Shown here: positions 1-53,449 of the stretch, one piece after another
Layout: each line of letters starts with the position of its first letter
Numbering within the stretch: position 1 is the stretch's first letter
Assembly: GCA_036785375.1 (NCBI GenBank)
Contig: JAWMAR010002559.1
Location: 1-64,000 of the forward strand
Origin: Leucoraja ocellata
Taxonomy: Eukaryota
Direction of reading: 5' to 3'
Length of the DNA: 64,000 nucleotides
Program-made: the position numbers and the translations under genes
The notes under the pieces: generated by a model
Database searches by the model: none
What the model saw: the letters and a program-made list of their open reading frames with translations, nothing else
Told to the model about the DNA's origin: nothing

Positions 1-215
1 TGGAACCAGAGCTCAGCGTATTCCACCCCCTCGCCACCCAAAGCTACTAGTGGAGTAGCTCCTCTAGTGACTTTGCTCGCCACTGTGCCCGGTGTCTCCG
101 CTGCTCAGTACCTCCTGCAGGTTGACGTACACGGCCGATTGCTCTTCCCCTCTCCAAGATTCCCCTCCTCCTTTCCGCTCCGCTGGGGCCGGCCCGTTCT
201 CTCCACTCCCGCGCT
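1..215 (-). pseudogene. Copy A terminal cytoplasmic exon (AVYVNL and VEYAEL ITIM), decayed
   Basis: cctttcctaccag acceptor; homologous to 37759-37911 but 1 nt shorter at the start and interrupted by the insertion at 39-75. VEYAEL codons at 26..9 are intact but out of frame. Confidence 0.8.
39..75. mobile_element. 37-bp TIR mini-element (CAAAG...CTTTG) with 8-bp target duplication CTCGCCAC
   Basis: Imperfect hairpin caaagctactagtggag / ctcctctagtgactttg; duplicated flanks at 30-37 and 76-83; empty site at 37771-37778. Confidence 0.8.
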
Positions 216-1385: not shown

Positions 1386-2074
1386 AAGTCGCACCAGCTT
1401 CTCGTTTTCACCCAACAAACCACTAACAGTGGCCTGTTTCCTTTATCATCGTTACTTTGTTTACATCTATCTTTCATTCATTGTTCTTTATCTCTCTCTA
1501 CATCATCGTCTATATAGAGTCATCCATTGTGGAAACAGGCCCTTCTGCCCAACTTGCCCACACCGGCCAACATGGCCCAGCTACACTAGTCCCACCTGCC
1601 TGCGCTTGGTCCATGTACCTTTCTAACTGTTTCTTAAACGTTGAATAGTCCCAGCCTCAACTACCTCCTCCAGCAGCACGTTCCATACACGCACCACCCT
1701 TTGTGTGAAAAAGTTACCCCTCAGATTTTTTTCCCCTTCACCTTGAACCTATGTCCTCTGGTCCTCGATTCCCCTACTCTGGGCAAGAGACTCTGTGCAT
1801 CTACCCGATCTATTCCTCTCATGATTATATACACATCTATAAGATCACCCCTCATCCCCCTGCGTTTCAAGGAATGGAGTCCCAGCCACCTCAACCTCTC
1901 CCTGTAGCTCAGGCCCCTCGAGTCTTGACCGAAACATCACCTGTTCCTTCTCGTCAGAGATTCTGCCTGTTCCACTGAGTTACTCCAGCTTTTGTACCCA
2001 CGTTTGTATCATCTATAGTTGGGATTAAATACAAAGTTCCACTACCTGATTGGTGGCAGAGTGTGGGCAGTAGA

Positions 2075-2111
2075 TCACATTGGTGTCTTGGTTTCCTGAA
2101 GCATCTTCCTC
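2075..2111 (-). CDS. Copy A cytoplasmic exon, coding part RKMLQETKTPM*
   Basis: The acceptor used in copy B (ctgtag) reads ctgttg here. The next AG (gctgcag) with phase 2 gives a short tail ending at TGA 2075-2077. The exon donor follows position 2046. Confidence 0.6.
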
Positions 2112-3775: not shown

Positions 3776-3875
3776 GGCAGTATATACTTGTAGATGAAGA
3801 ATCCAGCTAGCACAGCGCTCAGTATTATTATCCCTGTTCTGAGCAAAACTTGCATCCAAATACTGAAGCTTTTAT
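3776..3875 (-). CDS. Copy A transmembrane exon, KSFSIWMQVLLRTGIIILSAVLAGFFIYKYILP
   Basis: ttcttacag acceptor (phase 1), CC|gtaagt donor (phase 2), hydrophobic helix with internal Arg (AGA 3838-3840). Confidence 0.85.
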
Positions 3876-9066: not shown

Positions 9067-9360
9067 CTTCCATCGACAGATACACCACGAACATGGCTTC
9101 CCCGTGCCGGTTTCGGACTGAGCACAAGGCCGTCACGTCCTCTCCTCCCCCACCCCCTCTCAGAGTGAGGGAGCCATTCACCAGATGCCCGCTTGCCACC
9201 TGCCAGGTGTGGAGACGTCCCTGGGTTTGATTTCCGCTGAGGTTGGAGAGGGAAAGTTGCCAGGTGAGCTCTCCGGGTGGGTTGCACCTGGCCGCACACA
9301 CACAGGTGACACTCTCAGGTGTGTGAGTGCATCCCGAATCCCGGGAAATCTCTGGCGCAT
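9067..9360 (-). pseudogene. Copy A membrane-proximal Ig4 exon, open frame but acceptor reads TG
   Basis: (Y)APEISRDSGCTHTPESVTCVCAARCNPPGELTW...ALCSVRNRHGEA, 294 nt, donor G|gtgagg. The C-x7-CxC pattern resembles the last Ig domain of MAG/CD33-related Siglecs. Preceded by ccctctccTG instead of AG. Confidence 0.75.
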
Positions 9361-15541: not shown

Positions 15542-15575
15542 CCCGTAAACACTTCTGAGTTGCTGCTGATGGTAC

Positions 15576-22470: not shown

Positions 22471-22494
22471 TTTACTACTGTCATCACTATAACT

Positions 22495-22650
22495 TATGAA
22501 GTGGCAGAGACTCGAGAGGCCCAACGACTTCTTGATATATGAGGAAGTAACAGGAAATTTAGTGCAGAAAATGAAAATGTTCATTCACAGAATGAAGGGA
22601 AATGTATTCATTTGCATCCTCACGTCTGAGTTCCCCAGAGGTGAGGGTGC
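22495..22650. promoter_or_regulatory. ETS/PU.1 plus IRF motif cluster (related copies ~27975, 30970, 53558, 55990)
   Basis: GAAGTG, GAGGAAGT, CAGGAAA and GAAAATGAAA within ~80 bp of sequence showing no TE signature, upstream of the gene. Confidence 0.35.
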
Positions 22651-24230
22651 AAAACACTCCCTTTATTCATTGTGGAAACAAAGTTCTGGAGGAACTCACG
22701 GATCTGTGGGGGTTAGACACAAAGTGCTGGAGTAACTCAGCGGGACGGGCAGCATCTCTGTAGAGAAGGAATGGGTGATGTTTCGGGTGTGTAGGGGAGG
22801 GGGGTGTAAGGGAGGGGGGGTGTAGGGGAGGGGGATGTGGGAGGGGGTTGTAGGGGAGTGGGGGTGTAGGGGAGGGGGGGTGTGTGGGAGGGGGTGGGGG
22901 AGGGGGGATGTGGGAGGGGGCTCAACAGCCCACACTCTGCTGCTTCAGCTTTATTCTCGGCAGCTTCTGGACGGGCGACATCTGAACCGTTTTTGAGCAA
23001 ATTTAAAAACAACACAGAGGGGAAGTGGTCAAGATGAGAGTTTTAGTAATAGTGTAGACAGAAGATAGATTGTATCAGGATGCATCGCAGCTTGCTTTGG
23101 GAACAGCTCCATCCAAGATCGCAACAGGTCCTTCGGCCCACCATGTCCATGCCAGCCCTTTTTTTGGCCCATCTATTGGTCTGATTGTATAATTGCCATG
23201 TGTACCAGAATTCAGTGTTTGCACGCAACCCAGGCTGGTCGTACTGTACAAGGTCATAAGTGATAGGAGCAGAATTAAGCCATTCGGCCCATCAAGTCTG
23301 CTCCACCATTCAATCATTGCAGACCTATCTCTATCTCCTAACCCCATTGTCCTGCCTTCTCCCCATAACCTCTGTCACCAGTACAAATCAAGAATCTATC
23401 CGTCTCAGCCTTAAATAATCCACTGACTTAGCCTCTACAGTCTACTGTGGCAAAGAATTCCACAGATTCACCACCCTCTGACTGAAGATGTCCTTCCTCA
23501 TCTCCTTCCTAAAAGAACATCCTTTAATTCTGAGGCTGTAATCTCTAGTCCTAGACTCTCCCACTAGTGGAAACATCCTCTCCACGTTCACTCTATCCAA
23601 GCCTTTCATTATTCTGTATGTCCCTCCCTCATTCTGCTAAACTCCAGCGAGTACAGGCCCAGTGCTATCAAATGCTCATCATATGTTAACCCACTCATTC
23701 CTGGGATCATTCATGTAAACCTCCTCTGGACCCTCTCCAGAGCCAGCACATCCTTCCTCAGATATGGGGCCCAAAATCGCTCACAATATTGAGTACAATA
23801 TATACTGAGAGTCATGGGAGAGGGAGACACAGAAATACCTTTCTGTCCTGGGCCACCTTCACTGTTCGAGTCAGGCCCAACGCAAATTGGGGAACAGCAC
23901 CTCATATTACGCTTGGGCAGCTTACACCGGTACGATTATCGACTTCTCTAACTTCGTAACCTTGCTTTCCCTCTGTCTCCATCCCTCCTCTTTCCTATTC
24001 TACAACCAGTCTGACCGTCCTCTTGACGGTCTTGTGGGAACGAGCGACAGACACGGAATTACGTACCTGGGTTCTGTCCGCTGGTCGAGTATCGACTGAC
24101 AAACACTCAGGGAGCCAGTGTCCTCATCCTCAGCGGCTGTCACTGTGTGGAGAACACAAATGTGTAGAGGGGTAGATTAGCATCTGGAAACGGAAGTAAA
24201 ATAAGGAAGTATTCTTTTATCAGCAAACGG

Positions 24231-26545
24231 GTAAGTAAGTAAGTAAGTAAGTTTATTGGCCAAGTATTTACATACAAGGAATTTTCCTTGGTGCTCCGCC
24301 CACATGTAACAACATGACATACAGTGACAGTTACGAATAACTCAGAAAACACTAAACAATAATAATGATAAAACATTAATGATAAAACACCATTGATCAA
24401 GCATGTGAACCAACAAAATAACAGATCAAAGGGAGGCTACAGATTTTTGGCTGTTGAGTAGAGCAACTACTCGTGGATAAAAACAGTTTTTATGTCTGGC
24501 TGTGACAGCTTTGACAGTCCGGAGTCGCCTTCCAGAGGGAAGTGATTCAAAGAGTATGTGGCCAGGGTGAGAGGGGTCAAAGATGACCTTGCCCGCTCGC
24601 TTCCTGGCCCTTGCAGTGTATAGTTCATCAATGGAGGGAAGGTTGCAGCCAATAACCTTCTCTGCTGATCGGATGATTCGCTGCAGCCTCCAGGTGTCGT
24701 GCTTGGTGGCTGAGCCAAACCAGACCATGATGGAGAAGGTGAGAACAAACTCTACGATGGCCGTGTAGAATTGGACCATCATTGCCAGTGGCAGATTGTG
24801 CTTCCTCAGCTGCCGTAGGAAGTACATCCTCTGTTGTGCCTTTTTGACTGTTAAGTCGATGGTAGCCCCCCCACTTAAGGTCCTTGAGATGATGGTTCCC
24901 AGGAACTTAAAAGACTCCACTGATGTGACTGTGGTGTTGTTGATGGTGAGTGGGGAACGGGAGGGAGATGATCTCCTAAAGACTACAATCAATTCCACTG
25001 TCTAAAGAGCATTGAGCTCTAGGCTGTTGCGATGGCACCAGGAAGCCAGCTGTGACAACTCCAGGCCAACTCCTGTCTGTAGGCAGATTCCTCCCCATCC
25101 TGGATCAGTACAATCAGGCTTGTGCCATACACAAACTTTAGAAGCTTGACAGAGGTGTCTGTGGAGGTGCAGTCGTTGGTGTAGAGAGAGTAGAGGAGAG
25201 GAGAGCACCTTGCGCTGCTCCTATGCTGAGCGTTTGCGGGTCCAAGATGTGCTTTCCCAGCCTCACATGCTACTTCCAGTCTGTCAGGAAGCTGGCGATC
25301 CACCGACAGAGAGGTTCAGGCACAGTCAACTCGGAAAGTTTGGAGTGTAATAGCACTGGCACAATGGTGTCGATTGCAGAGCTAAAATCAACAAACAGGA
25401 TCCTTGAATAGGTCCCCTGGCGGTCTAGGTGCTGTAGGATGAAGTGCAGGCCCAGGTAGACTGCTTCATCCACAGATCTATTGGCCCGATATGCAAACTG
25501 CACAGGGTCCAGCAGGGGGATTGTGATATTTTTCAGCTTGGCCAGCACAAACGTTTCAAGTGTCTTCACGACTACAGAGGTCAGTGCAACAGGCCAGGGT
25601 AATCCGTGCCTTTTTGGGTACAGGGAAAATAGTGGAGACTTTGAAGAAGGCAGGGTCAGTACATGTTTGCAGGGACTGGTTCAAAATGTCTGTATAGACC
25701 GTTGTTTGGCACAGAGCTTAAGAGTAGAGGGGGAAACATTGTCAGGTCCTAGAGATTTACGGCTTTTTTTGTCTTCTGAAAAGCCACTCCGCCTCCTGAT
25801 GAAGTGATGTTGCTCAGCAAGGAGGGGGTGGGTAATTGGGTGTGAAGTGGTGATTGCAGGGGGGTGGGTGTAGAAGGGCCCAGTCTTTGCAGACTATCAG
25901 GCTGTGAATGAATGTGACGTGTTGGTTGGGGTGGGAAATGGTTCTGTCGTTTCATAATGTAGTCTTGCCTTAAATAGATGTAAAGTGATGAATGGGAAGG
26001 AGAGGGTGCAGGGTCGATTCTTTGCAGACTGGGGTCTGGCTGTGTTAGTTGGGGAGGGCGGGAGGGGGAGTGGTGGAGTGGGGGAGAGGGTACCAGGGTT
26101 ACGTTTATGATTTTCAAACCTGTAGTAAACTCATTCAGGCCGTTGGTCAGTTGACGATTGTGCAAAGAGCGGGGGGCTTTCATCTTGTAGCTGGTAATTT
26201 CTTGCAAGCCCTTCCAAACTGAAGACGAGTCACTAGCTGAGAACTTGCTCTGCAATTTCTCAGAGTACTTTTCCTTGGCAGCTCTGATTCCTCTTCTCAG
26301 CTTGTACTTGGCCTGCCAGTAGAGGCCTGCATCCCCGCTCCTGTAGGCCTCCTCTTTAGACTGTCGAAGCTGTCTGAGTTTTGCAGTGAACCAGGGCTTG
26401 TTGTTGTTGAACCATGTCCGGGTCTTAGTGGGAATGCAACTGACCTCGCAAAAGCTGACATATGATGATACAGTGTCCGTATACTCATCGAGGCTTGTGG
26501 TGGCTTCCCTGAACACATTCCAATCCGTGCAGTCAAATCAGGATT
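24231..26545 (-). mobile_element. Rex1/Babar-like LINE, degenerate ORF
   Basis: NNKPWFT, DPVQFAYRANRS, FKFLG, KKAQQRMYFLRQL, DPSHPGH motifs; (AAGT)n tail. Confidence 0.88.
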
Positions 26546-29448
26546 CACCAACTGATTCCTGGGATGTCAGGACTTTCATGTGAAGAAAGACTAGATAGAC
26601 TCGGCTTGTACTCGCTAGATTTTAGAATATTGAGGGGGGATCTCATTGAAACTTAAGGGGTTGGACAGGCTAGATGCAGGAAGAATGTTCCCGATGTTGG
26701 GGAAGTCCAGAACGAGGGGTCACACAGTTTAAGGATAAGGAGGAAATCTTTTAGGACCGAGATGAGACAAACATTTTTCACACAGAGAGTGGTGAATCTG
26801 TGGAATTCTCTGCCACAGAAGATAGTTGAGGCCAGTTCATTGGCTATATTTAAGAGGGGGTTTGATGTGGCCCTTGTGGCTAAAGGGATCAGGGGGTATG
26901 GAGAGAAGGCAGGTACGGAATACTGAGTTGGATGATGGTCTCTTGTCTCTACACCCCTCCCTGTCAAATTGGAGGTATGTAAACTAACGGGTGTGCCAGC
27001 TTCCTGTTCCACAGTGCCATGGTTAGGTTGCTGATTTGGATAAGACTGCACTGATTCAAGAATTGTTTAGGAAAGAACTGCAGATACTGGTTTGGACAGG
27101 CAGCATCTCTGGGTAGAAGAAGGGTCTCCACCCGAAACATCACCCATACCTTCTCTCCAGAGATGCTGCCTGACCCGCTGAGTTAATGATTCAAGAATGT
27201 GTGGAATTGTGCAAGGCAAGTTTGCTCAACTAATTATGCAAAGTTTTATAATAAATTAGCAGAGGGTCAGAACCAAGAACAGAGAACAGCACAGGAACAG
27301 CCCCTTCGACCTAAAATGTCCGTCCCAAACATAATGCCAAGTTAATCTCCTTGCCTGTACATAATCTGGAATTCTGCATTCCCTGCATGTCCATGTGCCT
27401 ATCTCAAGGCCACCAAAACACCACCATCACCGCTGCATCGACCATCACCCCTAGGCACCACCACTCTCTGGGTAAAAAACAATCCCCACACATTTTAGAT
27501 CTCGTTAACTTTTGAGATACAGCGTGGAAACAGGCCCCTCGGCCCATTGAGTCCGCGCCGACCATCGATCACCCGTTCACACACTAGTTCTATGTTTAGT
27601 TTTGAGATACAGCGCGGAAACAGGTCCTTCGGCCCATCAAGTCCGTGCCAGCCAGCGATCCCTGCACAGTAACACCATTCGATACACACGAGGGACAATT
27701 TTACATTGAAACCAAGCCAATTAACCTACAAACTCGTACGTCTTTGGAGTGTGGGAGGAAACCAAAGGTCTCGGAGAAAATCCACGCAGGTCACGGGAAG
27801 AACGTGCAAACTCCGTACAGCGCACATAGTCGGGATTGAACCCAGGTCTCTGGAGCTGTGAGGCAGCAACTATACCGCTGTGCCACCCTGCCGCCTCTTT
27901 CAGTTTCCCCCCCCTCTGATTTTAATTAGCCCCGTAAGTTATTCCTGGTGTATGAGTAAGAGTCATGGAATCAGTGAAGTGGCAGAGACTTGAGAGGCCC
28001 AACAACCTCTTGCTTCACGAGGAAGTGGACAGAAGTAGTAACAGGAAACTTTCTGTGAAAAATGAAAATGTCCTTTTTGCAGAAGGAAAAATGTATCAAA
28101 CAGCTCCCCAAAGCTGAGATGCAGAACAGTCCCTTTATTAATCAAGAAAGCAAAGTGCTGGAGGAACTGAGCGGATCTGCGGAGGGAGTGGACTAGTATC
28201 ACCAGTTCCTTCTTTCCACAAATGACATTTCAGATTGAGTCCAGACTGAAGGAGTAGAGTAGAAAACTGGAAAAGCAAGGTCATAGTCAGAGTGATACCA
28301 CATGGAAACAGGGCCTTCGACCCAACTTGACCACACCGGCCAACATGTCCCAGCTACACTAGTCCCACCTGCCCACGTTTGGTCCATATCCCTCCAAACC
28401 TGTCCTACCCGTGTACCAGCCTGTTTCATAAACATTGGGATAGCCAATGCCTCAACTACCTCCTCTGGCAGCTTGTTCCATGCACCAAACACCCTTTGTG
28501 AAAATGTTACCCCTCAGATTCCAATTAACCTTTTTCCCCCACTCACCTTAAACCAATGTTCTTTGGTCCTCGATTCACCTACTCTGGGCAAGAGACACTG
28601 TGTGTCTACCCGATCTATTCCTCTGCATCTGCATAAGATCACCCCTCATCCTCCTGCGTGCAAGGAATAGCATCCCAGCCTACCCATTCCTGGCAACATC
28701 CTCATAAATCTTCTCCGTACCCATTCCAGGTGAAAACATCTTTCCGATCACATGGTGCCCAGAACTGAATGCACATATTCTAAATGCGGCTTCACCAACG
28801 GCTTACACAACTGCAACATAACCTCCCGATTTCTAAACTGTGCAAACTGTGTGAGCAGGTGTGAATGGGTCCAAAGCCTGGCAAGTGATAGTGGATACAG
28901 GTGAGGGGGGCAGATGATTAGACTAGGTGGGAGAATCTAAGGACAGAAGTCACAGCCACAGAATTGAAGGACGTTCTTTTGGGAAAGCGATAAGAAGGAA
29001 TTTCTTCGGTCAGAGGATGGCGAGTGTGGAATTATTTGCCACACAAGGCTGTGGAGGCCGTCAATTAATATTTTTTAAGGTACAAAATACACCAGATAGA
29101 TTCTTGATTAGTACGGGTGTCAGGGGTTATGGGGAGAAGGCAGGAGAATGGGTTGAGAGGGAAAGATAGACCAGCCATGATTGAATGTTCGCTGTAGACT
29201 TGATGGGCCGAATGGCTTAATTCGGCTCCTATCATAAGGTCATCAGGAATAGGAGTAGAAGAATGTCTTTTAATTCTGAGGCTGTGACCTCTACTCCTAG
29301 ACTCACCCAATAGTGGAAATATCCTCTTAACATCCACTCTATCCAAGCCTTTCACTGTTCTGTATTTTTCAATGAGGTCCCCCTTCATTCTTCTCAACTC
29401 CAGCGAGAACAGGCCCAGTGCCAACAAGCGCTAATCATAGGTTAACCT

Positions 29449-30160
29449 CCATTGAGGATAAATGGCTATCCTGTGGATAGGGTGAACTGTTTCAAATATC
29501 TGGGAGTCCACATCTCTGAGGATATGACATGGGCATCACACGCCTCAGCAATCGTGAGTAAGGCAAGGCAGCGCCTTTACCACCTCAGGCAATTGAAGAA
29601 ATTCAGAGTGTCTCCGAGGATCCTCCAGTGCTTCTACGCAGCGGCGGTGGAAAGCATCTTGTCCGGGAACATTACCATCTGGTTTGGGAATTGCTCTGCC
29701 AAGGACAAGAAAGCTCTGCAGAGAGTAGTGCGTTCGGCCGAACGCACTATGGGAACTTCACTCGCCCCCCTGCAGGAACTATACAACAGGAGGTGCAACT
29801 CCAGAGCAAACAAAATCATGGGAGACCCCTTCCACCCCTGCAACGGACTGTTCCAGCTGCTACGTTCAGGCAAATGCCTCCGTTGCCATGCGGTGAGAAC
29901 GGAGAGGTTGAGGAGGAGTTTCTTCCCAGAGGCAATTCGGACTGTAAACGCCTATCTCACCAGGGACTAACTCTACAGAACGTTTTTCCTTCCATTATTT
30001 ATTATGTAAAAGAATATGTGTGTTATGATTGTGTTTAGAATTTGTTTGGTTGTTTTGTTGTTTGTCTTTTGCACAAAAGTCCGCGAGCATTGCCACTTTC
30101 ATTTCACTGCACATCTCGTATGTGTATGTGACAAATAAACTTGACTTGACTTGACTTGAC
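29449..30160 (+). mobile_element. Young Rex1/Babar-like 3' fragment, present in one of three paralogous sites
   Basis: Open 172-aa frame with FKYLGVHI and KARQRLYHLRQL; AATAAA plus (ACTTG)n tail; empty sites at ~21687 and ~55178. Confidence 0.88.
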
Positions 30161-31654
30161 TTGATTACCATATAACCATATAACAATTATAGCATGGAAA
30201 CAGGCCATCTCGGCCCTTCTAGTCCGTGCCGAACACTTATTCACCCCTAGTTCCATCTATCTGCACTCAGACCATAACCCTCCATTCCTTTCCCGTCCAT
30301 CTACCTATCCAATTTATTTTTAAATGATAAAATTGAACCTGCCTCCACCACTTCCACTGGAAGCTCATTCCACACCGCTACCACTCTGAGTAAAGAAGTC
30401 CCCCCTCATGTTACCCCATAACTTCTGTCCCTTAATTCTCAAATCATGTCCTCTTGTTTGAATCTTCCCTACTCTCAATGGAAAAAGCTTATCCACGTCA
30501 ACTTTGTCTATCCCTCTCAACATTTTAAAGACCTCCATCAAGTCCCCCCTTAACCTTCTGCGCTCCAAAGAATAAAGACCTAACCTGTTCAACCATTGTC
30601 TGTAACTTAGTTGCTGAATCCCAGGCAACATTCTAGTAAATCTACTCTGCACTCTCTCCATTTTGTTGACATCCTTCCTATAATTTGGCGACCAAAATTG
30701 TACACCATACTCCAGAATTGGCCTCACCAATGCCTTGTACAATTTTAATATTCCTGGGATCATTCTTGTAAACATCCACTGGACCCTCTCCAGAGCCAGC
30801 ACATCCTTCCTCAGATACGGTGCCCAAAATCGCTCACAATATTCCAAATGCGGCCTCACCAGCACCTTATGGAGCCTCAACATTATACCCCTGTTTTTGT
30901 ATAAAAGCCCTCTTGAAATAAATGCTAGCGTTGACTTTGCTCTCTTTACTACTGTCATCACTATAACTTATGAAGTGGCAGAGACTCGAGAGGCCCAACG
31001 ACTTCTTGATATATGAGGAAGTAACAGGAAATTTAGTGCTAAAATTGAAAATGTTCCTTCACAGAATGAAGGGAAATGTATTCATTTGCATCCTCACGTC
31101 TGAGTTCCCCAGAGGTGAGGGTGCAAAACACTCCCTTTATTCATTGAGGAAACAAAGTTCTGGAGGAACTCAGCGGGTCTGTGGGGGTTAGACACAAAGT
31201 GCTGGAGTAACTCAGTGGGACGGGCAGCATCTCTGTAGAGGAGGAATGGGTGACATTTCGGGTCGAGGCCCTTCTTCAGACTGAGAGTCAGGGGAGAGGG
31301 AAACAAGAGATATAGTCGGTGAAAAAATGAGAAAATAAATTTTTACACAGAGAGTGGTGAATCTGTGGAATTCTTTGCCACAGAAGGTAGTTGAGGCCAG
31401 TTCATTGGCTATATCTAAGAGGGAGATAGATGTGGCCCTTGTGGCTAAAGGGATCAGGGGGTATGGAAAGAAGGCAGGTATGGGATACTGAGTTGGATGA
31501 TCAGTCATGATCATATTGAATGGCGGTGCAGGCTTGAAGGGCCGAATGGCCTACTCCTGCACCTATTTTCTATGTTTCTATGTGATATAGAGAGATATAA
31601 AACAAATGAATGAAAGATATCCTAAAACAGTAACAATGGTAAAGGAACCAAGCC

Positions 31655-33203: not shown

Positions 33204-33870
33204 CTGTGCATGGGGGAGAGGGTAGGGCTGAAGATGTCCTGGTTGGGTTGCTCCTGGGACTGGTCAAGCTGGCCATCCTCAAGTCACAGGGTCAGGCAGA
33301 AGAGGGCTCTGCCTGAGCCAGCTGCCTGCCCCTTTTCCGTGCCCGGGTGGTGTTAGAGAGGGACTACGCACCAAAGATCCTATAGCGGAGCAAGATAGAC
33401 CACTCCTGCTAAATGCAATGGGCTGACGTGTAGTACGCAACGGAAAGGAACGTGGGCCTTTTTTACATCCATTTCCGTAACCGGACCCGACCCGACTCGC
33501 AGTGTAATCAACGCTGCGGGGGATCAGTTTGTGTTAATACATTAAAATTCTGAAAATGAGAAGAAGGTTTTTACCAACTAACTTTTATTTTTACGAGGAT
33601 GTTCCCGTAACCGGCTTCCGTCTTCGCACTATTATCCTATGGGATCTGTGGTGCGGCGATGGAAGCCGGTTACGGGAATGGGGCCTTAAATTACCCATGA
33701 ATATGCCCATGACCGTACTATGTCTTTTGGTCGAGTGGACGATCTTGCTCGCTGTAGGATCTTTGCTACACACTGTCCACGGGCAACCTGGGGGATTTGC
33801 CGCACCGTTGGGCACGGCGGGGGGTGGAATGCATCCTTGACAAGGATTGTAACATAGTTGTATAGTCGTT
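33204..33870 (+). mobile_element. Tx1-like LINE 3' fragment interrupted by a MITE
   Basis: DVLVGLLLGLVKLAI...CLPLFR...ARVVLERDY, recognised as a Tx1 ORF2 C-terminal pattern. Confidence 0.6.
33372..33765. mobile_element. MITE with ~33-bp TIRs (CAAAGATCCT...) and 8-bp TSD (paralog 60586-63493, split by CR1)
   Basis: TIRs caaagatcctatagcggagcaagatagaccactc / gagtggacgatcttgctcgctgtaggatctttg; flanks ctacgcac / ctacacac; internal inverted repeat ~33601-33680. Confidence 0.85.
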
Positions 33871-34712: not shown

Positions 34713-34959
34713 TTGTCAGATTTCCAGCGTCTGCATTTCATTATTATTATTACTCACCAATGCCACACAGAGAGCTGCTTGCTATGAAACTTGTTATAGA
34801 ACATGGCGCTACAAGAGCAAGAGCTTCAGAATAGCATTAGCAACAATCCCACAGGATTCTCAAAATATATATTTAATAGCTACGAGTGGATTTTGTAACT
34901 GCAGGTAAAGACTGTTTAACAGACTATCATTTGATAGAAGCAATTATTGTCAATGTTAA

Positions 34960-37463
34960 TAGTTACCCCAATAAAATCGCTGAAAAATGGTAAGACACCG
35001 GGACCAGATGGTTTTAATAATGATTTTTATAAAACATTTCAGGAGATAACGACCCCTTATTTATTTAATTTATACTCCCATGCTTTTAAAGAAAACAAAC
35101 TACCTGAAACACTAACAGAATCAACTATTACGCTTATTCCAAAAAAAAGATAAAGATTTAGAAGATCCGGGCTCGTACAGAGCTATATCACTTTTAAATA
35201 CAGATCAGAAAATTTTAGCAAAGATTTTAGCAAGAAGATTAAGCAAATATATTAGTAAATTGATAAACCCTGATCAAACGGGGTTTATACCTAAAAGATA
35301 CTAATTTAATAATCTGAGACGCCTGTTTAATATAATGTACTCGCATAAAGTAGAGGAAGAAGATATATCAATTATTTCTGTGGATGCAGAGAAAGCATTT
35401 GATCAGGTAGAGTGGCAATACTTATATAAAGTACTACAAAAATTTAATATGGGAATTTTATAACATGGGTAAAATTATTATATGATAAACCGATGGCAAG
35501 AATTTTAACTAATAACATGTTATCTCAAAAATTTCAACTATCAAGGGGTAACAGGCAGGGATGTGCACTATCACCCCTGCTATTTGCCCTTATGATAGAA
35601 CCCCTGGCTGAAAGTATAAGAATTCATCCGAATATTCAGGGCTATAATACCAGGGACTCAAAGAATAAAATCTCATTATATGCAGACAATATACTTTTAT
35701 ACATTACAAAGTCACAAACAAGCATACCAAATTTATTAAACTTAATAGAGGAATTTGGATCTTTTTCTGGATATAGAATAAACTGGAACAAAAGTGAAAT
35801 CATGACACTAAAACCTCAAGAACCTACACACTTATTGAAGTTCCCCTTTAAAATCGCAACAGAAAAATTTAAATATTTGGGTATTCAGATTACTAGAAAA
35901 TATAAAGCATTATTCAACGCTAATTTCATACCTTTATTAAATAAACTTAATACGCTGATTAAATTTTGTAAAACACTTCCCTTATCATTATTAGGTAGAA
36001 TAAATGCAATAAAAATGATCTTCCTACCACAATTACTATACGTATTTCAGTCTATACCGGTATATATACCAAAATATTTAAAAAAAAATTAGACTCTAAC
36101 ATTACAAATTATATTTGGGACTATAGATCACATAGAATCACAAAAAAACACTTATGTAAACCAAAAGAGGTCGGGGGACTTTCACTTCTGAAATTCACTT
36201 CCGAATTTGATGTATTATTACTGGGCAGTGCATATTAAGAATATGATTTATTGGTTGGATAGTTCTACCCAACAGACAGAATGGATAAAAATAGAGAAGG
36301 AGGATTGCCATCCTTGTAATATAGGAACGATCCTCTTTCCCCCCAAAAAACTGAATAACACAATATATAAGAAGAACCCAATTATATATGGTACAATAAG
36401 AATTTGGAAACAAATAAAATTATCTTTAAAATTAAGAAATCTATCACTGTTAATGCCAATAGCGAATAACCCTTTATTTAAACCATCTCTTATTGATAAG
36501 ACATATAATCAATGGGAAAGTCTCGGAATTAGAAGGATCGGGGATATGTACGAAATGGGAAACCTACTATCATTCTAACAACTACAATTAAAATCTAAAT
36601 TGAAAAACAACCAATATTTTAAATATCTTCAAATTTGCGACTTCGTGAAAAAATATATACAAGGATATCAAAAAGGAACTCCTGACTTATTGGAAGAAGC
36701 AATGAATATTGAAGCTGACTCACAAAAAATAATATCCTATTTATATAATAGTATTCTAAATATAGACCTACCATCGACAGAGGTACTTAGAGAAGAGTGG
36801 GAATGGGAATTAATGATAAAAATTACGAAGGTTAAATGGGAAAAATACCTGATATATATTCACAAATGTTCAATTAACGTAAGACATAATCTAATTCAAT
36901 TTAAAATTGTACATAGATTATATTATTCAAAAACAAGATTGAACAAATGTTATCCAAATATATCCGCCACTTGTGATAAATGTCTAGCCCAAAAGGCAAC
37001 TATAACACACTCCTTAGTTTCCTGCATAAAACTTTATAGATTTTGGAATGATATTTTTGAAATATTTACAAAATTATTCAAGACAAGAATGGAACCTAAT
37101 ACTGAAATGATTATATTTGGTGTAATGGAAGATGGGAATAAATTGAACACATCTCAAAATCTATTCCTTAACTATGGTTTAATAATAGCAAAAAATTAAT
37201 ACTTAAATTTTGGAAGGGTACATCAATACCAACGCTTAAAATGTGGATTGCAGGTATGTTTCAGGACTGGACGAGGGTTGGTCAAGATTATAAATGATGA
37301 TCTCCTTTTCTTTTTTATTTTATTTTCTTTTCTATATTTTCTCTCTCAACTTTCTTCATTTACTCATTTTCTTTCTTCACACGCTATATATTTCACATCT
37401 TTCTATCCTTTATTATCTAACTTCTTTTTCTTATTCTATTCTTTAAAAAAAAAAAAAAAAAAA
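34960..37463 (+). mobile_element. 5'-truncated L1 (ORF2 RT plus Cys-rich C-terminus) with poly(A)
   Basis: GKTPGPDGF, YRAISLLN, DAEKAFD, GNRQGCALSPLLF, YADN, FKYLG, CDKC; stops and frameshifts; A-tract at 37445-37463. Confidence 0.92.
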
Positions 37464-37758
37464 TCAATATTTACCCGCGGAAGTCTGGGTTCTAAAGAAC
37501 AAAGGCTTTTTTAAAGAGATACAGCGGGAAAACAGGCCCTTCAGCCCACCGAGTCCGCACCGACCATCGGTCATCCGTTCACACACTAGTTCTATGTTAT
37601 CCCACTATTTCATCTACAGAGGGTTAATTAATCTATGAAACCCAAGGTAGTTAAGGCTGGTGCAGCGCTCTCTCCCCATCGCCTCTCCCTCCTCACCACC
37701 CTTCCCTCCATCCTCCCACCTACCCCTTCCCCTGCTTGGACTGGAACCAGAGCTCCGC

Positions 37759-37911
37759 CTATTCCACCCCCTCGCCACTGTGCCCGGTGGCTCCGCTGCT
37801 CAGCACCTCCTGCATGTTGGCGTACACGGCCGATTGCTCTTCCCCCTCGCCTGATTCCCCTCCTTCTTTCCGCTCCACTGGGGCCGGCCCGTTCTCCCCA
37901 CTCCCCGCGCT
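37759..37911 (-). CDS. Copy B terminal exon, SAGSGENGPAPVERKEGGESGEGEEQSAVYANMQEVLSSGATGHSGEGVE*
   Basis: ccctttccttccag acceptor, phase 0. TAG at 37759-37761 sits where copy A has TAC (ITIM Tyr). The frame continues AELWFQSKQGKG to TAG at 37720-37722. Confidence 0.8.
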   Translation of the reverse strand, partial: SAGSGENGPAPVERKEGGESGEGEEQSAVYANMQEVLSSGATGHSGEGVE

Positions 37912-39194
37912 CTGGAAGGAAAGGGAAGCAGACGGGCAGTTGTGGGTTTAGTACAGAGCAGTGTGGCCCGGCATTTAATACCATCAGTGAGAAGGTTCAC
38001 AACTCCTGTACTCCCACAGACCCAGGTTCAGCCATGTTGTTGATGTTCTCCTCTCACACACTCTCGCTCTCCTTCTCTCTCCCCCTCTCTCACTTTCTCT
38101 CCCTCTCCCTCTCCTCTCACTTGCAGTTTCACACTTTTTCTCTCCCCCTTTCGCCCTCTCCTCTTTCTCTCACTCGCTCACACTCAGGCACTGTGTCTCT
38201 CACACTCGCAGTTTCACCCACTCTCCCTCTCTCGCCCCGTCTCCCCCTCTCTCCAACTTTCTCTCTCTCTCACACCCACTCTCACACCCACACACTCTCA
38301 CATAGTTAGATAAATCAATATTCATATCCCCGGTTGCTAAATACTTTAATTCCCCTTCCCACACTGACCTTTCTGTCCTCGGTCGCCTCCATTGACAGAG
38401 TGAGGCTAAACACAAATTGGAGGACCAGCATCACATATTCCGTTTGGGCAGCTTACAGCCCAGTGATATGAACATTGATTTCCCTCACTTGAGGTAGCCC
38501 TGTGTTCCCTCTCTCTCCATCCCTCCCCCTCCCAAGTCGCACCAGCTTCTCGTTTTCACCCAACAAACCACTAACAGTGGCCTGTTTCCTTTATCATCGT
38601 TACTTTGTTTACATCTATCTTTCATTCATTGTTCTTTATCTCTCTCTACATCATCATCTATATAGAGTCACACATTGTGGAAACAGGCCCTTCTGCCCAA
38701 CTTGCCCACACCGGCCAACATGGCCCAGCTACACTAGTCCCACCTGCCTGCGCTTGGTCCATGTACCTTTCTAACTGTTTCTTAAACGTTGGGATAGTCC
38801 CAGCCTCAACTACCTCCTCCAGCAGCTCGTTCCATACACGCACCATCCTTTGTGTCAAAAAGTTACCCCTCAGATTTTTTCCCCTTCACCTTGAACCTAT
38901 GTCCTCTGGTCCTCGATTCCCCTACTCTGGGCAAGAGACTCTGTGCATCTAACCGATCTCTTCCTCTCATGATTTTATACACATCTATAAGATCACCCCT
39001 CATCCCCCTGCACTCCAAGGAATAGAGTCCGAGCCTCCTCAACCTCTCCCTGTGGCTCAGGCCCCTCGAGTCTCGACCGAAACATCGCCTGTTCCTTCTC
39101 TCCAGAGATTCTGCCTGTTCCACTGAGTTACTCCAGCTTTTTGTACCCACTTTTGTATCATCTGTAGTTGAGATTAAATACAAAGTTCCACTAC

Positions 39195-39267
39195 CTGATT
39201 GGTGGCAGATTGTGGGCAGTAGATCACATTGGTGTCTTGGTTTCCTGAAGCATCTTCCCTCCAGCAG
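39195..39267 (-). CDS. Copy B cytoplasmic exon, (H)CWREDASGNQDTNVIYCPQSATNQ
   Basis: cttctgtag acceptor (phase 2) and CAG|gtagtg donor (phase 0) link the TM and terminal exons in frame. Confidence 0.72.
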
Positions 39268-40174
39268 CTACAGAAGATCACACCAAGTTTACAGCACATC
39301 AGCAAATTCCAAGTATAAAGTTGCAGTTGTATTAGACGTTGGTCATAAAGTCATGAGGTTATTAATGATAGGAGCAGAATGAAGTCATTCGGCCCATCAA
39401 GTCTACTCTGCCATTCAATCATGGCTGATCTAACTCTTCCTTCTAATTCCATTCTCCTGCCTTTTCCCCCATAACCCCTGACACCCGTACTGATCAATAA
39501 CCTATCCATCTCTGCCTTAAACATATTGATTGGCTTGGCCTCCACAGCCTTCTGTGGCAAAGAATTACACAGATTCACCACCCTCTGACTGAAGAAACTC
39601 CTACTCTGCTTCCAAAAGGTAGTCCTTTAATTCTAAGGCTGTGGCCTCTGGTCCTAAACTCACACTCCTACTAGTGGAAACATCCTCTCCACATCCACTC
39701 TATCCAGGCCATTCACTATTCATTAAATATCAATGAGGTCTTCCCCTCATCCTTCTAAACTCCAGCTAGTACAGGCCCAGTAAGTGTCAAATGTTAATCA
39801 TTCTCGTAAACTTCCTTTGGACCCTCTCCCGAGCCAACACATTCTCCCTCAGATATGGGGCCCAAAACAGCTCACAACAGTCTAAAGGCCATCCGTCGCT
39901 GGCTCTGATTTGTTCTAACTTTCTCAACCTTTCAGTCTGAAGAAGGTCCCAACCCGAAATGTCACCTATTCCTGAATCCCCAGAGATGCTGCCTGACCCG
40001 CTGAGTTACTCCAGCACTTTGTACCTGTCCATGATCTCCAGAGATGCTGCCTGACCCGCTGAGTTACTCCAGCACTTTGTGTCTGTGAACAGGAGTTAGC
40101 CTGGCAGAAGCAGTCATAAGCAGATGACAAAGAGATGGATTTGGCAGTAAAAATGTGGATTTATTTAAACTTAC

Positions 40175-40271
40175 TGCAGTATATACTTGTAGATGATGAA
40201 TCCAGTTAGCACAGCCACCAGTATTATCCTTGCTGTAAGCAAAACTGCCTTCCAAATACTGAAGCCTTTAT
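40175..40271 (-). CDS. Copy B transmembrane exon, KGFSIWKAVLLTARIILVAVLTGFIIYKYIL(H)
   Basis: tttttacag acceptor, CA|gtaagt donor, internal Arg (AGG 40228-40230). Confidence 0.85.
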
Positions 40272-42699
40272 CTGTAAAAACAAGAGGTGTGTTTTCAGTT
40301 TTTACAGTTTAATTTATTGTCACGTGTAACGAGGTACAGTGAAAAGCTTTTGTGTCGTGCTATCCAGTCAGCAGAAAGGCAATACGTGATTACAATGGAG
40401 CCGTCCACAGTGTACAGATACAGAACAAAGGGAATAACGTTTAGTGCAAGGTAAAGCCAGCAAAGTTCGATCAAAGATAGTCCGAGGGTCACCAATGAGG
40501 TAGATAGTAGTTCAGGACTGCTCCCTAATTGTGGTAGAATGGCCTGATAACAGCTGGGAAGAAACTGTCCCTGAATCTGGAGATGTGCGTTTTCACACCA
40601 GTTCCCTTATCATGTATCTAAATACTGTAAACAGCTTGATTGTAATCATGTGTGGTCTGTACACTGACTGGTTAGCACACAACAAAAGCTTTTCACTGTA
40701 GCTCGGCGCACACATGACAATAAACTAAACTGTAACATAGTCTTATAGTAGTGTATAAATCATGAGTGGATTAGATCGGGTAGATGCACAGAGTCTCTTG
40801 CCCAGAGTAGGGGAATCGAACATCAGAAAACATAGGTTTAAGGTGAGGGGGAAAAGATTTAATAGGAATCTAAGGGGAAACATTTCCACACAGTGAGTGG
40901 TGGGTGTATGGATTGTGCTGCCAGAGGCCGTTGAGGCAGAGACTATCCCAACATTTACAAAACAGTTATACAGGTACATGGATAGGACTGGTTTGCAGGG
41001 ATATGGACCAAGCACAGGCAGGTGGGACTAGTGTAACTGGGGCATGTTGGCTGGTGTGGACAAGTTGGGCCAAAGTGCCTGTTTCCACAATGTATCACTA
41101 TAACTCTGTGAGACGGATATGGGCCTGTTTTCATGCAATGCCACTATGACTCAATGATATCTTGCCTGCCGCAGATGTTAGAGTCTAGTTGTTGTGCAAG
41201 ACGTTGGTGAGACCGCATTTGAGGTATTGCGTCTAGCTTTAGTCACACTGCTCTAGGAAGGAAGCTGGAAAGAGTGCAGAGAAGATTCATGACAATAGAC
41301 AATAGGTGCAGGAGTAGGCCATTCGGCCCTTCGAGCCAGCACCGCCATTCAATGTGATCATGGCTGATCATCCACATTCAGTACACCGTTCCTGCCTTCT
41401 CACCATATCCCTTGACTCCGCTATCTTTAAGAGCTTTATCTAACTCTCTCTTCAAAGCATCCAGAGAATTGGCCTCCACTGCTTTCTGAGACAGAGAATT
41501 CTACAGATTCACAATTCTCTGGGTAAAAAAGTTTTTCCTCATTTCCATTTTAAATGGCCTACCCCTTATTCTTAAACTGTGGCCCCTGGTTCTGGACTCC
41601 CGCAACAGGAACATTTTTCCCGCCTCTAGCGTGTTCAATCCCTTCATAATCTTATATGTTTCAATAAGATCCCTTCTCATCCTTCTAAATTCCAGTGTAA
41701 TCCAGTTATTTTTTCACACAAAGAGTGGTGAATCTCTGGAACTCTCTGCCGCAGAGGGTAGTCGAGGCCAGTTCATTGGGTATATTTAAGAGGTAGTTAG
41801 ATGTGGCCCTTGTGGCTAAGGGGATCAGAGTGTATGGAGAGAAGGCAGGTACGGTCTACTCAGTTGGATGATCAGCCATGATCATATTGAATGGCGGTGC
41901 AGGCTCGAAGGGCCGAATGGCCTACTCCTGCGCCTAATTTATATGTTTCTATACAAGCCCAGCCGCTTCATTCTATCAACATATGCCAATGCCGCCATCC
42001 CGGGAACTAACCTCATGAACCTGCGCTGCACTCCCTCAATAGCAAGAATAGCTTTCCTCAAATTTGGAGACCAAAACTGCACACAATACTCCAGGTGTGG
42101 TCTCACCAGGGCCCTGTACATCTGCAGAAGGACCTCTTTGCTCCTATATTCAACTCCTGCTGTAATGAAGACCAGCATGCCATTGCCGTTCTTCGCTGCT
42201 TGTTGTACCTGCATGCTTACTTTCAGTGACTGATGAACAAGATCTCTTTGTACTTCCCCTTTTCCCAACTTGACACCATTCAGATAATAATCTGCCTTCC
42301 TGTTTTTGCCACCAAAGAGGATAACCTCATATTTATCCACATTAAATTGCATCTGCCATGCACCCGCCCACTCACCCAACCTGCTGAGGTCACTCAGCAT
42401 CCTCATAGCATCCTCCTCACAGTTCACACAGCCACCCAGCTTTGTGTCATCTGCATATTTGCTGATGGTGCTTTGAATCCCTTCATCTAAATCATTGATG
42501 TATATTGTAAATTGCTGCATTCCCAGCACTGAACCTTGCGGTACCCCACTAGTCACTGCCTGCCATTCTGAAAGGGACCCGTTAATCCCTACTCTTTGTT
42601 TCCTGTCTGCCAACCAATTTTATATCCATGTCAGTTCCCTACCCCCAATATCATGTGCTCTAATTTTGCCACTAATCTCCTATGTGGGACTTTGTCAAA

Positions 42700-43977
42700 T
42701 CTATCAACACTATTACTAAAACTCACATCTTGTCCTCTTCCCGTTTGCGTTGTTTTTAAATTTGCGCAAAAATGATACCCAATATCGCTAGGATATATCG
42801 CCACCTTACTCACCGTCCTCTGCTCCAAGTGCACCAAATTTTGTTCTGATCGCACCCCCAACCCCTTCCCCTTCCCCTCTGGTCCTCCTCACTGGCTCCC
42901 GCACCCCCACCCCGTAAATCCGCACACTACCCCATGGCTCTTCCCCCGTCTTTTCTCTGAGCTCTCTCCCCCCCCGCCCACACCCCTCCCCTGCCACACA
43001 CCCCTCCCCCCACACCCTAACACCCCCCACAACCCTCCCTCCCACACCCCCTGCCCACAGACCTCCCTCCCCAAAACCCCCCCACACACCCCTCACCACC
43101 CCACACACCCCTCACCACCCCACAACCATTCTCCCCACACACCCTTACCTCCCACACACCCTTACCTCCCACACACCCCTCACCACCCCACACACCCCTC
43201 ACCACCCCACACACCCCTCACCACCCCACACACCCCTCACCACCCCACAACCATTCTCCCCACACACCCTTACCTCCCACACACCCTTACCTCCCACACA
43301 CCCCTCACCACCCCACACACCCCTCACCACCCCACACACCCCTCACCACCCCACACACCCCTCACCACCCCACAACCATTCTCCCCACACACCCTTACCT
43401 CCCACACACCCTTACCTCCCACACACCCCTCACCACCCCACACACCCCTCACCACCCCACACACCCCTCACCACCCCACACACCCCTCACCACCCCACAA
43501 CCATTCTCCCCACACACCCTTACCTCCCACACACCCCTCACAACCTCCCTGACGACACACCCCCACAATGCACCCCACACCACACCCCCAGCCCACACAC
43601 CCCTCCCCCCCACAACCCCCCTCCCCCACACAATCCCCCCTCCCCCACAATACCCCCTCCCCCACACAATACCCCTCCTCCCACAACTACCGCCTCTCCC
43701 CACACACACACAAACTCCCTCCCCCCCCACACAACCCCCACCCCACACACACCCTCCCCCACCTGAAAAGCCTCATCTACAACACCCCCTTCCCACACAC
43801 AACCCTCCCCGAAACCACTCCCCCCCTCCCACATCCTCCCTCCCTCATCCCACCCCCACATCCCTCCTCCTCCCCCCTTGGAAACCCCTCCAGCCCACAT
43901 ACACACTTTCTCACCCACCCCTCCCCAACACACACTCCCCGTGGTGTTTGGGACCCAATGGGTCCCACTTAGTCTAG
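42700..43977 (+). mobile_element. Helitron, unit-2 copy (internal deletion and expanded C-rich minisatellite)
   Basis: Same termini and same A|T site within the CR1. Confidence 0.85.
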
Positions 43978-48239: not shown

Positions 48240-48955
48240 ATTCTACAGTGAGGGTCACATCCCTCTCTGCTGTCCCATGGTCATTCTCCGCCACACATTG
48301 ATAGACCCCAGCGTCCTTCCCTGTCAGCTGAGGGAATTGAAAACACTAGGCTTGTATTCACCGGAGTTTAGAAGGTTGAGGGGATATCTTATAGAAACAT
48401 ATAAAATTATAAAAGGACTGGACAAGGTAGATGCATGAAAAATGTTCCCAATGTTGGGCGAGTCCAGATCCAGGGGCCACAGTCTTAGAATAAAGGGGAA
48501 GCCACTTAAGACTGAGGTGAGAAAAAAAAATTTCACCCAGAGAGTTGTGAATTTGTGGAATTCCCTGCCACAGAGGGAAGTGGAGGCCAAGTTACTCGAT
48601 GGATTTAAGAGAGAGTTAGAGCTCTAGGGGCTAGTGGAATCAAGGGATATGGGGAGAAGACGGGCACGGGTTATTGATTGGGGACGATCAACCATGATCA
48701 CAATGAATGGCGGTGCTGGCTCGAAAGGCCGAATGGCCTCCTCCTGCAACTATTTTCTATGTCTATGTCTATGTCCATCCACAGCTCGTTGCTGGAACGT
48801 GTTGTGTTCAGCGTGACACCGATGTCTCCACATCAGGTTAGACGCTGGGAAACTCTGGAAGGAGCAGAGGATCGCTGCAGAGTTTCCTTCCTTTATACTG
48901 ACCCAGGAATTGTTCACATTGTCGGGGGAAGTGATTGAGAGATTCTGGGGGGCGT
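48240..48955 (-). pseudogene. Copy B disrupted Ig3 exon
   Basis: Halves at 48773-48955 and 48240-48336, with the same frameshift and the same CR1 insertion site as copy A. Confidence 0.9.
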
Positions 48956-49837: not shown

Positions 49838-50131
49838 ATTCCACAGTCAGTGTGAGGGTCTGCTCCGATGACACAGTTGGGTATGTGACTCTGCAGGTGA
49901 GGTTTTGTCCGTGATGTTTGAGCGCTGGGGTCAGGGACAGAACAGAAGTATATGTCAGAGTGTCACCCTGCTGAGTTACGCTGTTTGAGGCTGACGGTGG
50001 TTCATCAGCGGGGGTGACCCAGGTTAAGGTGGGTGCCGTTCCATCACACGTGGTGTTGAAGGAGCAGGTCATGTCCACAGGCTTTCCTGGCACCAATTCA
50101 GCAGGAAATATCGTGGGTTTATCCGTGAAAT
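49838..50131 (-). CDS. Copy B C2-set Ig exon
   Basis: 294 nt, AG/GTAAGT, 5 aa differences from copy A. Confidence 0.93.
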
Positions 50132-50587: not shown

Positions 50588-50956
50588 CAGTAACACCGAG
50601 CTGTGTTGCAGGGAGGTAGTTGTACTTATTTCCCCCTCCGAAATCAACTTTGAAAAAATAAGGACCTGCATCTTGCGGCGTGACGTTGTCTATAACCAGG
50701 GAACAGTCGTTGTCTATCAGGATTCCTGACAGCCGGGTCCGATGCTGAAACTTTGTTGATGCTAGACTGGGATTCCCGGAGTGGAAGGCTACAGGACCTT
50801 TGTTGTCGTACGACCCACTGTTAAACCAGATTCCAGTCCGTGGTTTATTGTTCAGATCCGACGGGTACGTGTAGTGACACGGAATCCGTGCACACAAACC
50901 ATTCTGCGCTTTCACAGCTCTGGGATTCCATGCACCCCACTCTCCCGACATCACGG
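50588..50956 (-). CDS. Copy B Siglec-type V-set exon with essential Arg>Lys
   Basis: 369 nt, phase 1-1, donor G|gtaatt. GLCARIPC and NDCSL retained; DAGPYFFKVD with AAA at 50649-50651. Confidence 0.93.
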
Positions 50957-51090: not shown

Positions 51091-51795
51091 CTCCCTCCTC
51101 ACCGCCCCTCCCCCAGTGCATCACTCCCTCCTCACCGCCCCTCCCCCAGTGCATCACTCCCTCCTCACCGCCCCTCCCCCAATGCATCACTCCCTCCTCA
51201 CCGCCCCTCCCAGAATGCATCACTCCCTCCTCACCACCCCTCCCACAGTGCATCACTCCCTCCTCACCGCCCCTCCCAGAATGCATCACTCCCTCCTCAC
51301 CACCCCTCCCACAGTGCATCACTCCCTCCTCACCGCCACTCCCACAATGCATCACTCCCTCCCACAGTGCATCACTCCCTCCTCACTGCCCCTCCCCCAG
51401 TGCATCACTCCCTCCTCACCACCCCTCCCACAGTGCATCACTCCCTCCTCACCGCCACTCCCACAATGCATCACTCCCTCCCACAGTGCATCACTCCCTC
51501 CTCACCGCCCCTCCCCCAGTGCATCACTCCCTCCTCACCGCCCCTCCCAGAATGCATCACTCCCTCCTCACCGCTCCTCCCACAATGCATCACTCCCTCC
51601 CACAATGCATCACTCCCTCCTCACTGCCCCTCCCCCAGTGCATCACTCCCTCCTCACCGCCACTTCCACAGTGCATCACTCCCTCCTCACCACCCCTCCC
51701 ACAGTGCATCACTCCCTCCTCACCGCCACTCCCACAATGCATCACTCCCTCCCCCAGTGCATCACTCCCTCCTCACCGCCCCTCCCCCAGTGCAC
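51091..51795. repeat. 33-bp minisatellite expanded to roughly 20+ variant units
   Basis: Same unit with substitution variants and shortened units. Confidence 0.95.
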
Positions 51796-51834
51796 CATTC
51801 CCCGTAAACACTTCTGAGTTGCTGCTGATGGTAC

Positions 51835-51874
51835 CTTGGAGAAGGGAGAGGAGGAAGAACGATCTCCCGATCAT
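51835..51874 (-). CDS. Copy B signal-peptide exon
   Basis: Same peptide as copy A. ATG at 51874, donor AAG|GTACC, exon opens at 51916. Confidence 0.85.
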
Positions 51875-53249: not shown

Positions 53250-53449
53250 NNNNNNNNNNNNNNNNNNNNNNNNNNNNNNNNNNNNNNNNNNNNNNNNNNN
53301 NNNNNNNNNNNNNNNNNNNNNNNNNNNNNNNNNNNNNNNNNNNNNNNNNNNNNNNNNNNNNNNNNNNNNNNNNNNNNNNNNNNNNNNNNNNNNNNNNNNN
53401 NNNNNNNNNNNNNNNNNNNNNNNNNNNNNNNNNNNNNNNNNNNNNNNNN
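53250..53449. other. Assembly gap (200 N)
   Basis: Flanks map to ~17190 and ~27866 in unit 1, so up to ~10 kb may be unresolved. Confidence 0.99.

Follow-up and report, generated by a model that had tools for sequence, protein, structure and literature searches.

Activating KIR and Ly49 receptors evolve recurrently from inhibitory genes, and one member, KIR2DL4, combines a transmembrane (TM) Arg with a long tail (PMC1193534). Among Siglecs, the hallmark of the activating forms is a basic TM residue together with loss of the ITIM (PMC6890642, PMC13358205). Human Siglec-14 and Siglec-16 and mouse CD33 arose next to relatives that bear ITIMs, within a cluster that evolves fast, have a basic TM residue and no bona fide ITIM, and have been shown to pair with DAP12; mouse CD33 has also kept its tail (PMC6890642, PMC13358205, PMC6288428). 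YxNM or ITT motifs are found in DAP10 and membrane IgG, and ITT-like motifs in DNAM-1 and TIGIT, with outcomes that vary (i.e., activating, Grb2-only, or inhibitory; PMC7226588, PMC4263166). According to a teleost study, inhibitory CD33-related Siglecs are missing from fish genomes (PMC7226832), and adaptor TM charge is covered, without reference to sharks, in PMC4536121. A search by title and start of abstract, in a literature that takes in a minority of the subscription journals, returned no paper on such receptors in cartilaginous fish.

Here we describe two tandem Siglec-like genes, copies A and B, in 64,000 nucleotides of Leucoraja ocellata DNA (hereafter, the window). As assembled, copy B has an open frame and intact splice sites, has lost the ITIM, and carries a YxNM motif, a TM Arg, and a Lys at the essential-Arg position. 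The basic TM residue and missing ITIM are shared with Siglec-14, Siglec-16 and mouse CD33, and the retained tail with mouse CD33; however, pairing with DAP12 is demonstrated for those receptors and predicted for copy B, which has an 80-residue YxNM tail. Like activating KIR and Ly49 forms, copy B would have become activating by mutation, but it belongs to another receptor family with other ligands and is without any ITIM. Its YANM fits the YxNM of the DAP10 and ITT group and arose from an ITIM-like YxNL by one substitution. Among PDB entries, its V domain is closest to MAG and its C2 domain to CD33; any orthology to the mammalian CD33-related cluster is putative. A CD33-like protein of Amblyraja radiata (P0007, 350 aa) has the same leader-V-C2-TM-two-exon-tail layout and the same junctions, and its tail is 87% identical to that of copy B. 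Unlike copy B, P0007, as well as P0013 and the Rhinoraja longicauda protein P0021, has retained the distal ITIM, the proximal YxxL, the Arg of the V domain, and a TM core free of charge. Our tentative reading, possible but short of probable, is that copy B is an ITIM-less paired receptor of the activating type.

Gene models of the two paralogues

The window is repeat-rich vertebrate DNA with a single gap of 200 N (53250-53449), which interrupts the promoter region of copy B about 1.4 kb upstream of its ATG. Both copies lie on the minus strand, on the same side of this gap, and are about 3.5% diverged over 14,524 aligned bases. Genes flanking the pair are absent from the window, as is an intact inhibitory twin. 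The V exons of both copies match the Pfam V-set and the PDB entries of MAG, sialoadhesin, and CD33. Upstream of copy A, internal segmental duplications of about 96% identity (17439-22788 versus 22786-26074 and 28506-31263) partly match 54224-56283, beyond the gap. A 33-bp minisatellite in the leader intron has 5 copies in A (15374-15543) and about 21 in B (51091-51802), and copy B also has a near-perfect 125-bp array at 43076-43536. A scan of the window for bacterial promoters and terminators was empty, a result irrelevant to vertebrate DNA.

Table 1. Features of copies A and B and of the spacer between them
Feature	Position	Strand	Remarks
Copy A VEYAEL codons	9..26	-	exon runs off the window start
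Copy A 46-bp insertion	30..83	-	37-bp palindrome ending in CAAAG/CTTTG; 8 bp of target duplicated
Copy A small cytoplasmic exon	2046..2111	-	lacks one base (true frameshift, or an error of the consensus)
Copy A TM exon	3776..3875	-	own Arg at 3840-3838
Copy A fourth Ig exon	9067..9360	-	open frame; CTG at the expected acceptor AG; absent from B
Copy A leader/V-set/C2 exons	15615-15576 / 15239-14871 / 14414-14121	-	intact
LINE (RT + zf-RVT, poly-A end)	34900..37463	+	AT-rich, frames broken; in the spacer between the gene units
Copy B last coding exon	37720..37911	-	pyrimidine-rich AG acceptor; aligns to P0007, P0013, P0021
Copy B early TAG replacing the Tyr of the distal ITIM	37759..37761	-	
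Copy B proximal motif AVYANM (YxNM)	37813..37830	-	Met (ATG) versus Leu (CTG) in copy A
Copy B small cytoplasmic exon (73 nt, VIYCPQ)	39195..39267	-	GT donor after 39195
Copy B TM exon	40175..40271	-	Arg249 at 40230-40228
Copy B dead third Ig exon	48240..48955	-	frameshift + ~430 bp repeat insertion; acceptor intact
Copy B C2-set exon	49838..50131	-	Pfam C2-set_2 E 9e-10; PDB best match CD33 domain 2, E 5e-9
Copy B V-set (Siglec-type) exon	50588..50956	-	Pfam V-set E 2.4e-9
Copy B Lys116 (AAA) in place of the essential Siglec Arg	50649..50651	-	copy A Arg (AGA, 14934-14932)
Copy B leader exon	51835..51874	-	ATG at 51874, phase-1 GT donor; matches P0004 and P0007 N-termini

Copy B can be read without interruption from its ATG to the stop across six exons, joined at ten GT/AG splice sites, which gives 341 aa (Table 1). 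An N-terminal V-set domain is followed by a C2-set domain, a single TM segment, and a cytoplasmic tail, which is the Siglec architecture. The leader exon is identical to that of copy A (0/40 nt differ). The best PDB matches of the V exon are MAG (4e-24), sialoadhesin (2e-18), and CD33 (4e-13), and the best relatives are Amblyraja radiata proteins at 80-82% identity. Cysteines of the V domain align with those of MAG and sialoadhesin, and the C2 pair aligns with that of CD33; presumably they form the Siglec-type disulfides (three cysteines in V, an extra one in C2).

For the 341-aa frame to be read, the dead third Ig exon must be skipped, and we infer that it is skipped in the mRNA. Its inclusion would stop copy B at aa 303. 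Because the third and fourth Ig exons are both of phase 1-1, skipping leaves a two-domain receptor, as in the P0007 model. The third exon of copy A (13239-12522) carries the same lesions, and the fourth is missing from B and no longer has an acceptor in A. Two facts run counter to the activating reading at this point, i.e., the intact acceptor of the third exon and its inclusion in Amblyraja radiata P0004, with the same frameshifted read-out (1/67 residues differ).

At the small cytoplasmic exon, the acceptor used by copy A reads CTG in copy B, which has an in-frame TAG acceptor 6 nt upstream. Skipping of this exon would yield a frameshifted tail without a tyrosine motif. The first-pass annotation had proposed that the last exon is spliced to 39195 and ends the coding sequence. 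Both proposals are supported by the predicted join, which is of phase 0 with the GT donor and identical to the junction in P0007, and by the downstream end position that P0007, P0013, and P0021 share. The LINE of the spacer is antisense to copy B and lies about 260 bp below its old stop (the 5' end of the element is approximate); a target duplication was looked for around it and not found. The first AATAAA on the strand of copy B (37414) lies inside this element.

Copy A had been taken by the first-pass annotation as the intact comparator, which it is not. Its codons GTG GAA TAC GCT GAG CTC (26-9) are present, but out of frame behind the insertion, which consists of a 37-bp element (39-75), one extra base, and the duplicated target (30-37 and 76-83). 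Through the insertion a TAG comes to stand at 66-64, in the codon that corresponds to the stop of copy B. The core forms a weak hairpin (z -2.05; 5/200 shuffles as good). Since its five terminal bases match those of two longer elements of the window (33372-33765 and 60586-63493), it looks like a real insertion of a miniature DNA transposon. By their CAAAG...CTTTG termini and the 8 bp of duplicated target, these elements are, we assume, hAT-like. The longer 2.9-kb element resembles the 394-bp one with extra internal material.

Single bases are also missing from copy A within its small cytoplasmic exon and where its last exon begins; taken at face value, its frame ends at aa 280, without a tail tyrosine motif. 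These losses may be consensus errors, because the stretch in which they lie (window positions 1-2549) has an excess of one-base gaps on the A side (14 in 1,591 aligned bases versus 1.1 expected, P 1e-11, in an alignment of which one block partly pairs non-orthologous repeats). Third copies of the repeat agree with copy B in the stretch tested, where all four gaps belong to A. As assembled, copy A is without a distal ITIM whether the losses are real or errors, and given the insertion, the out-of-frame VEYAEL and the TAG at 66-64, we rejected it as an intact inhibitory partner. A paired receptor would have an inhibitory twin whose ligand-binding domain is almost identical; copy A has no inhibitory motif left, 26 residues separate its V domain from that of copy B, and the remainder of the cluster lies beyond the window.

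Altered signalling and binding sites in copy B

With the V exon of copy B as query, 59 relatives passed the threshold among 147 candidates, all of them Ig proteins, and the 57 that are named all come from sharks and rays. Together with the two paralogues in the window and a V exon diverged at three times the background, they place copy B in a tandem, fast-evolving cluster. The tail type of copy B is found in 23 of the 59; the remaining 36 have other tails or no TM segment. A tail tree of 25 rows, drawn from sharks and rays and with a bootstrap that had yet to settle fully, groups A and B with P0007 (99/98).

The assembly of copy B reads GTG GAA TAG GCG GAG CTC from 37767 on the minus strand, as had been annotated. 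The stop is codon 51 of the 63 in the last exon, and it removes 13 residues including the tyrosine, while VIYCPQ (39227-39210) and AVYANM are retained. The lost tyrosine belongs to the consensus ITIM of the family: the distal motif occurs in 21/23 relatives, of which 18 fit [ILSV]xYxx[LV] and three are TxYxxI. With this motif cut, copy B is left without the cytoplasmic ITIM ([ILSV]xYxx[LV]) of inhibitory Siglecs. Escape from nonsense-mediated decay, also proposed before, is likely on the gene model, in which the stop lies in the last coding exon and the nearest downstream GT sites lie at 35 and 39 nt. Junction-dependent decay follows a 50-55 nt rule, and use of a third GT, 62 nt below the stop, would break the escape.

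All chance figures, here and below, are post hoc. Given a nonsense change in the exon, an exact hit on this tyrosine has a chance of 4-7% and any stop of the same effect 23-28%; over the whole 354-codon frame the values are about 1% and 5-6%. With such figures, the position of the stop exactly at the tyrosine is weak as evidence of selection, and we did not accept it as strong. Three protein searches returned no second sequence carrying the stop. The first, with P0007 residues 236-350 as query for independent tails, gave two proteins among 250 candidates and was insensitive, as it missed known relatives such as P0021; a shorter-length search for independent sequences with the tail gave 0/8 candidates; and the last exon, with X at the stop, had no matches against 50% representatives.

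Two stingray proteins, P0039 (Hypanus sabinus) and P0046 (Hemitrygon akajei), resemble copy B in tails that end just after the proximal tyrosine, without the distal ITIM. Unlike copy B, they form a separate clade (98/99), have an uncharged TM, keep the essential Arg, and carry I/V at +3, and they are known from protein models alone. If these models are right, ITIM truncation appears to recur; their tail ends could also be effects of isoform choice or annotation.

The transmembrane Arg, which the first-pass annotation leaves unmentioned along with the need to skip the third Ig exon and the Lys of the V domain, strengthens the activating case for copy B, which on its sequence combines a basic TM residue with the absence of an ITIM. 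Arg249 is a Gly-to-Arg change 13 residues before the cytosolic YKY. The Arg of copy A lies 16 residues before YKY, three positions further out, a spacing that, we assume, resembles that of FcR-gamma-paired receptors. A basic residue (K/R) in the 19-residue TM core, with limits inferred from hydrophobicity and alignment, occurs in 0/23 relatives of this tail type; a TM Lys or Arg would arise by chance in 19-27% of cases in copy B and 34-41% in copy A. A TM Arg is also seen in P0020 (Hypanus sabinus), whose tail is of another, non-ITIM type. P0013 and P0021 appear in our data both as relatives with an uncharged TM core and as carriers of a TM Glu.

In the V domain, alignment with MAG and sialoadhesin puts Lys116 in the place of their F-strand Arg. 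The essential Arg is found by pattern in the first V domain of 56/59 relatives, one has Thr, and two are unmatched (one of which shows Arg). Lacking this residue of the Siglec family, copy B is best called Siglec-like by its sequence. An Arg-to-Lys change abolishes binding in sialoadhesin and CD22; the literature searched contained no passage on its effect in Siglecs. Copy B is comparable in this to primate Siglecs without the essential Arg, which remain expressed proteins (PMC6288428). P0001, P0002, and P0003 have several V-set domains in tandem, and in P0001 and P0002 some later ones carry Lys or Ser instead of Arg.

The first-pass annotation had further suggested that the remaining tail could signal positively through YANM. 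This motif does satisfy YxNM, the consensus of DAP10 and ITT (PMC7226588). YxN itself is ancestral (14/23 relatives, in ITIM-bearing tails), and we rejected it as a gained activating feature; the part of the suggestion that stands is the Leu-to-Met change, since YxxM is found in 0/23. Its chance of making YxNM is about 1% among the three changes of copy B in the exon (post hoc). The motif does not guarantee p85 binding, since that of the IgG tail bound only Grb2-family adaptors (PMC4263166). The tyrosine of VIYCPQ does not fit an ITIM and occurs in 4/23 tails, and a signalling role for it is unsupported.

Divergence between the copies and rival explanations

The alternative that survives best, serious though doubtful, is that copy B, under selection that slackened once the gene had been duplicated, is decaying or acts as a decoy that does not signal, with the stop, the Lys, the TM Arg, and the Met as unselected hits. 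Several conserved sites are altered in it at once, and the Arg-to-Lys change, the loss of the acceptor of A, and the antisense LINE in the 3' region all look like marks of decay. The third and fourth Ig exons are dead in both copies, and copy A has further lesions. Moreover, at a divergence of only 3.5%, frameshifts need not have arisen yet: 0.63 one-base indels are expected since the duplication, and because the probability of none is 0.53 without selection, the open frame of copy B is weak evidence.

Against decay, the only nonsense change of B and the insertion of A share an interval of 63 nt, or 5.9% of the frame, in which stops remove the ITIM and keep the proximal motif (chance for a stop about 5-6%). 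The V exons differ at 36/369 nt (9.8%, versus 3.5% background), whereas the 90-nt intron upstream is identical in both copies and the dead third exon nearly unchanged (3/284, ~1%); C2 differs at 7/294 (2.4%). Replacement changes are more frequent in the V exon than in C2 (Fisher P 0.0002), and the V exon's pN of 0.110 exceeds its pS of 0.059, a difference that is not significant (Fisher P 0.21). This pattern suggests recent diversifying pressure on ligand binding. In addition, the replacement acceptor of the small exon is in frame, and Arg-less primate Siglecs are still expressed (PMC6288428). A second patch of about 10% divergence (3340-3900 versus 39410-40300) takes in the TM exon together with the intron that follows; we did not accept it as proof of selection, because the neighboring intron is equally diverged, and it suggests gene conversion from another paralogue.

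It is also conceivable, though improbable, that copy B is an attenuated inhibitory or trafficking receptor acting through its proximal tyrosine (e.g., by Grb2-SHIP or weak SHP binding). On the one hand, TIGIT inhibits by recruiting SHIP-1 via YxN-Grb2, CD96 carries YxxM (PMC7226588), YxN is ancestral in the tails counted above, and Siglec-7 signals through its proximal ITIM (PMC7911748). On the other hand, only 2/23 relatives match the ITIM consensus at the proximal site versus 18/23 at the distal one, the proximal motif of copy B is off consensus with Ala at -2 and Met at +3, and the TM Arg is left unexplained.

An outright consensus error at the TAG is very improbable: the single assembly, the error-prone stretch (1-2.5 kb) and 200-N gap in the window, and the protein searches without an independent stop would allow it, but the signature of error here is one-base deletion on the A side, whereas copy B shows a single gap of this kind from 37740 to 39400 in the alignment of the two copies, is mid-contig, and is gap-free from leader to last exon. 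A TAG that is real but polymorphic, such as a rare allele private to this animal, would fit every other reading.

A candidate activating receptor and its family

If copy B is an ITIM-less receptor of the activating type, its 341-aa leader-V-C2-TM-tail product, CD33-like in architecture, would no longer be inhibitory. Without the distal ITIM it would cease to dock SHP-1/2, and its TM Arg would pair with an ITAM adaptor with an acidic TM (of the DAP12, FcR-gamma, or CD3-zeta type). Once phosphorylated, YANM might recruit Grb2, perhaps also p85. The changed V domain might recognize a ligand other than self sialic acid, e.g., a microbial one. Copy A would have come to a similar ITIM-less, TM-Arg state through different mutations. 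Three points weigh on the other side: FcR-gamma was not found in shark genomes in a 2014 survey (PMC4016189); mouse CD33 pairs with DAP12 and needs it, yet no activating role is reported for it (PMC6890642, PMC13358205); and activating Siglecs are usually short-tailed, whereas the tail of copy B has some 80 residues. A more far-reaching version is unlikely, namely that both paralogues were separately converted to activating receptors by ITIM loss at the same codon (through a point mutation in B and a small transposon-like insertion in A) and a TM Arg of their own, that a single base change turned the ITIM-like YxNL of B into a working YxNM of the DAP10/CD28 type and made B a self-contained costimulatory Siglec blind to sialic acid, and that the two, with the ITAM-bearing relatives, reveal an undescribed paired-Siglec system of cartilaginous fish.

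Those relatives come from the 36 proteins with other tails, of which 14 have a TM segment: four of these carry a YxxL-x7-YxxL ITAM and six have tails of at most 12 residues. The ITAM closely resembles that of DAP12 as given in PMC7226588. The proteins may possibly be Siglec-DAP12-like fusions in batoids, and perhaps more novel than the stop of copy B. The ITAM tails are those of P0015, P0027, P0029 (Rhinoraja longicauda), and P0048 (Pristis pectinata), with a split version in P0024. As read from these predicted proteins, signalling modules are exchanged often within the cluster; seen this way, copy B is less surprising but the family more interesting.

Conversion of inhibitory into activating receptors is already known in mammals (KIR, Ly49, Siglec-14/16, mouse CD33). 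If copy B is not expressed, it represents ordinary birth-and-death in an immune gene cluster. If it is expressed, the same logic of conversion would operate in the oldest lineage of jawed vertebrates, by steps that are separable single changes (Tyr-to-stop, Leu-to-Met, Gly-to-Arg, and Arg-to-Lys) relative to the intact P0007.
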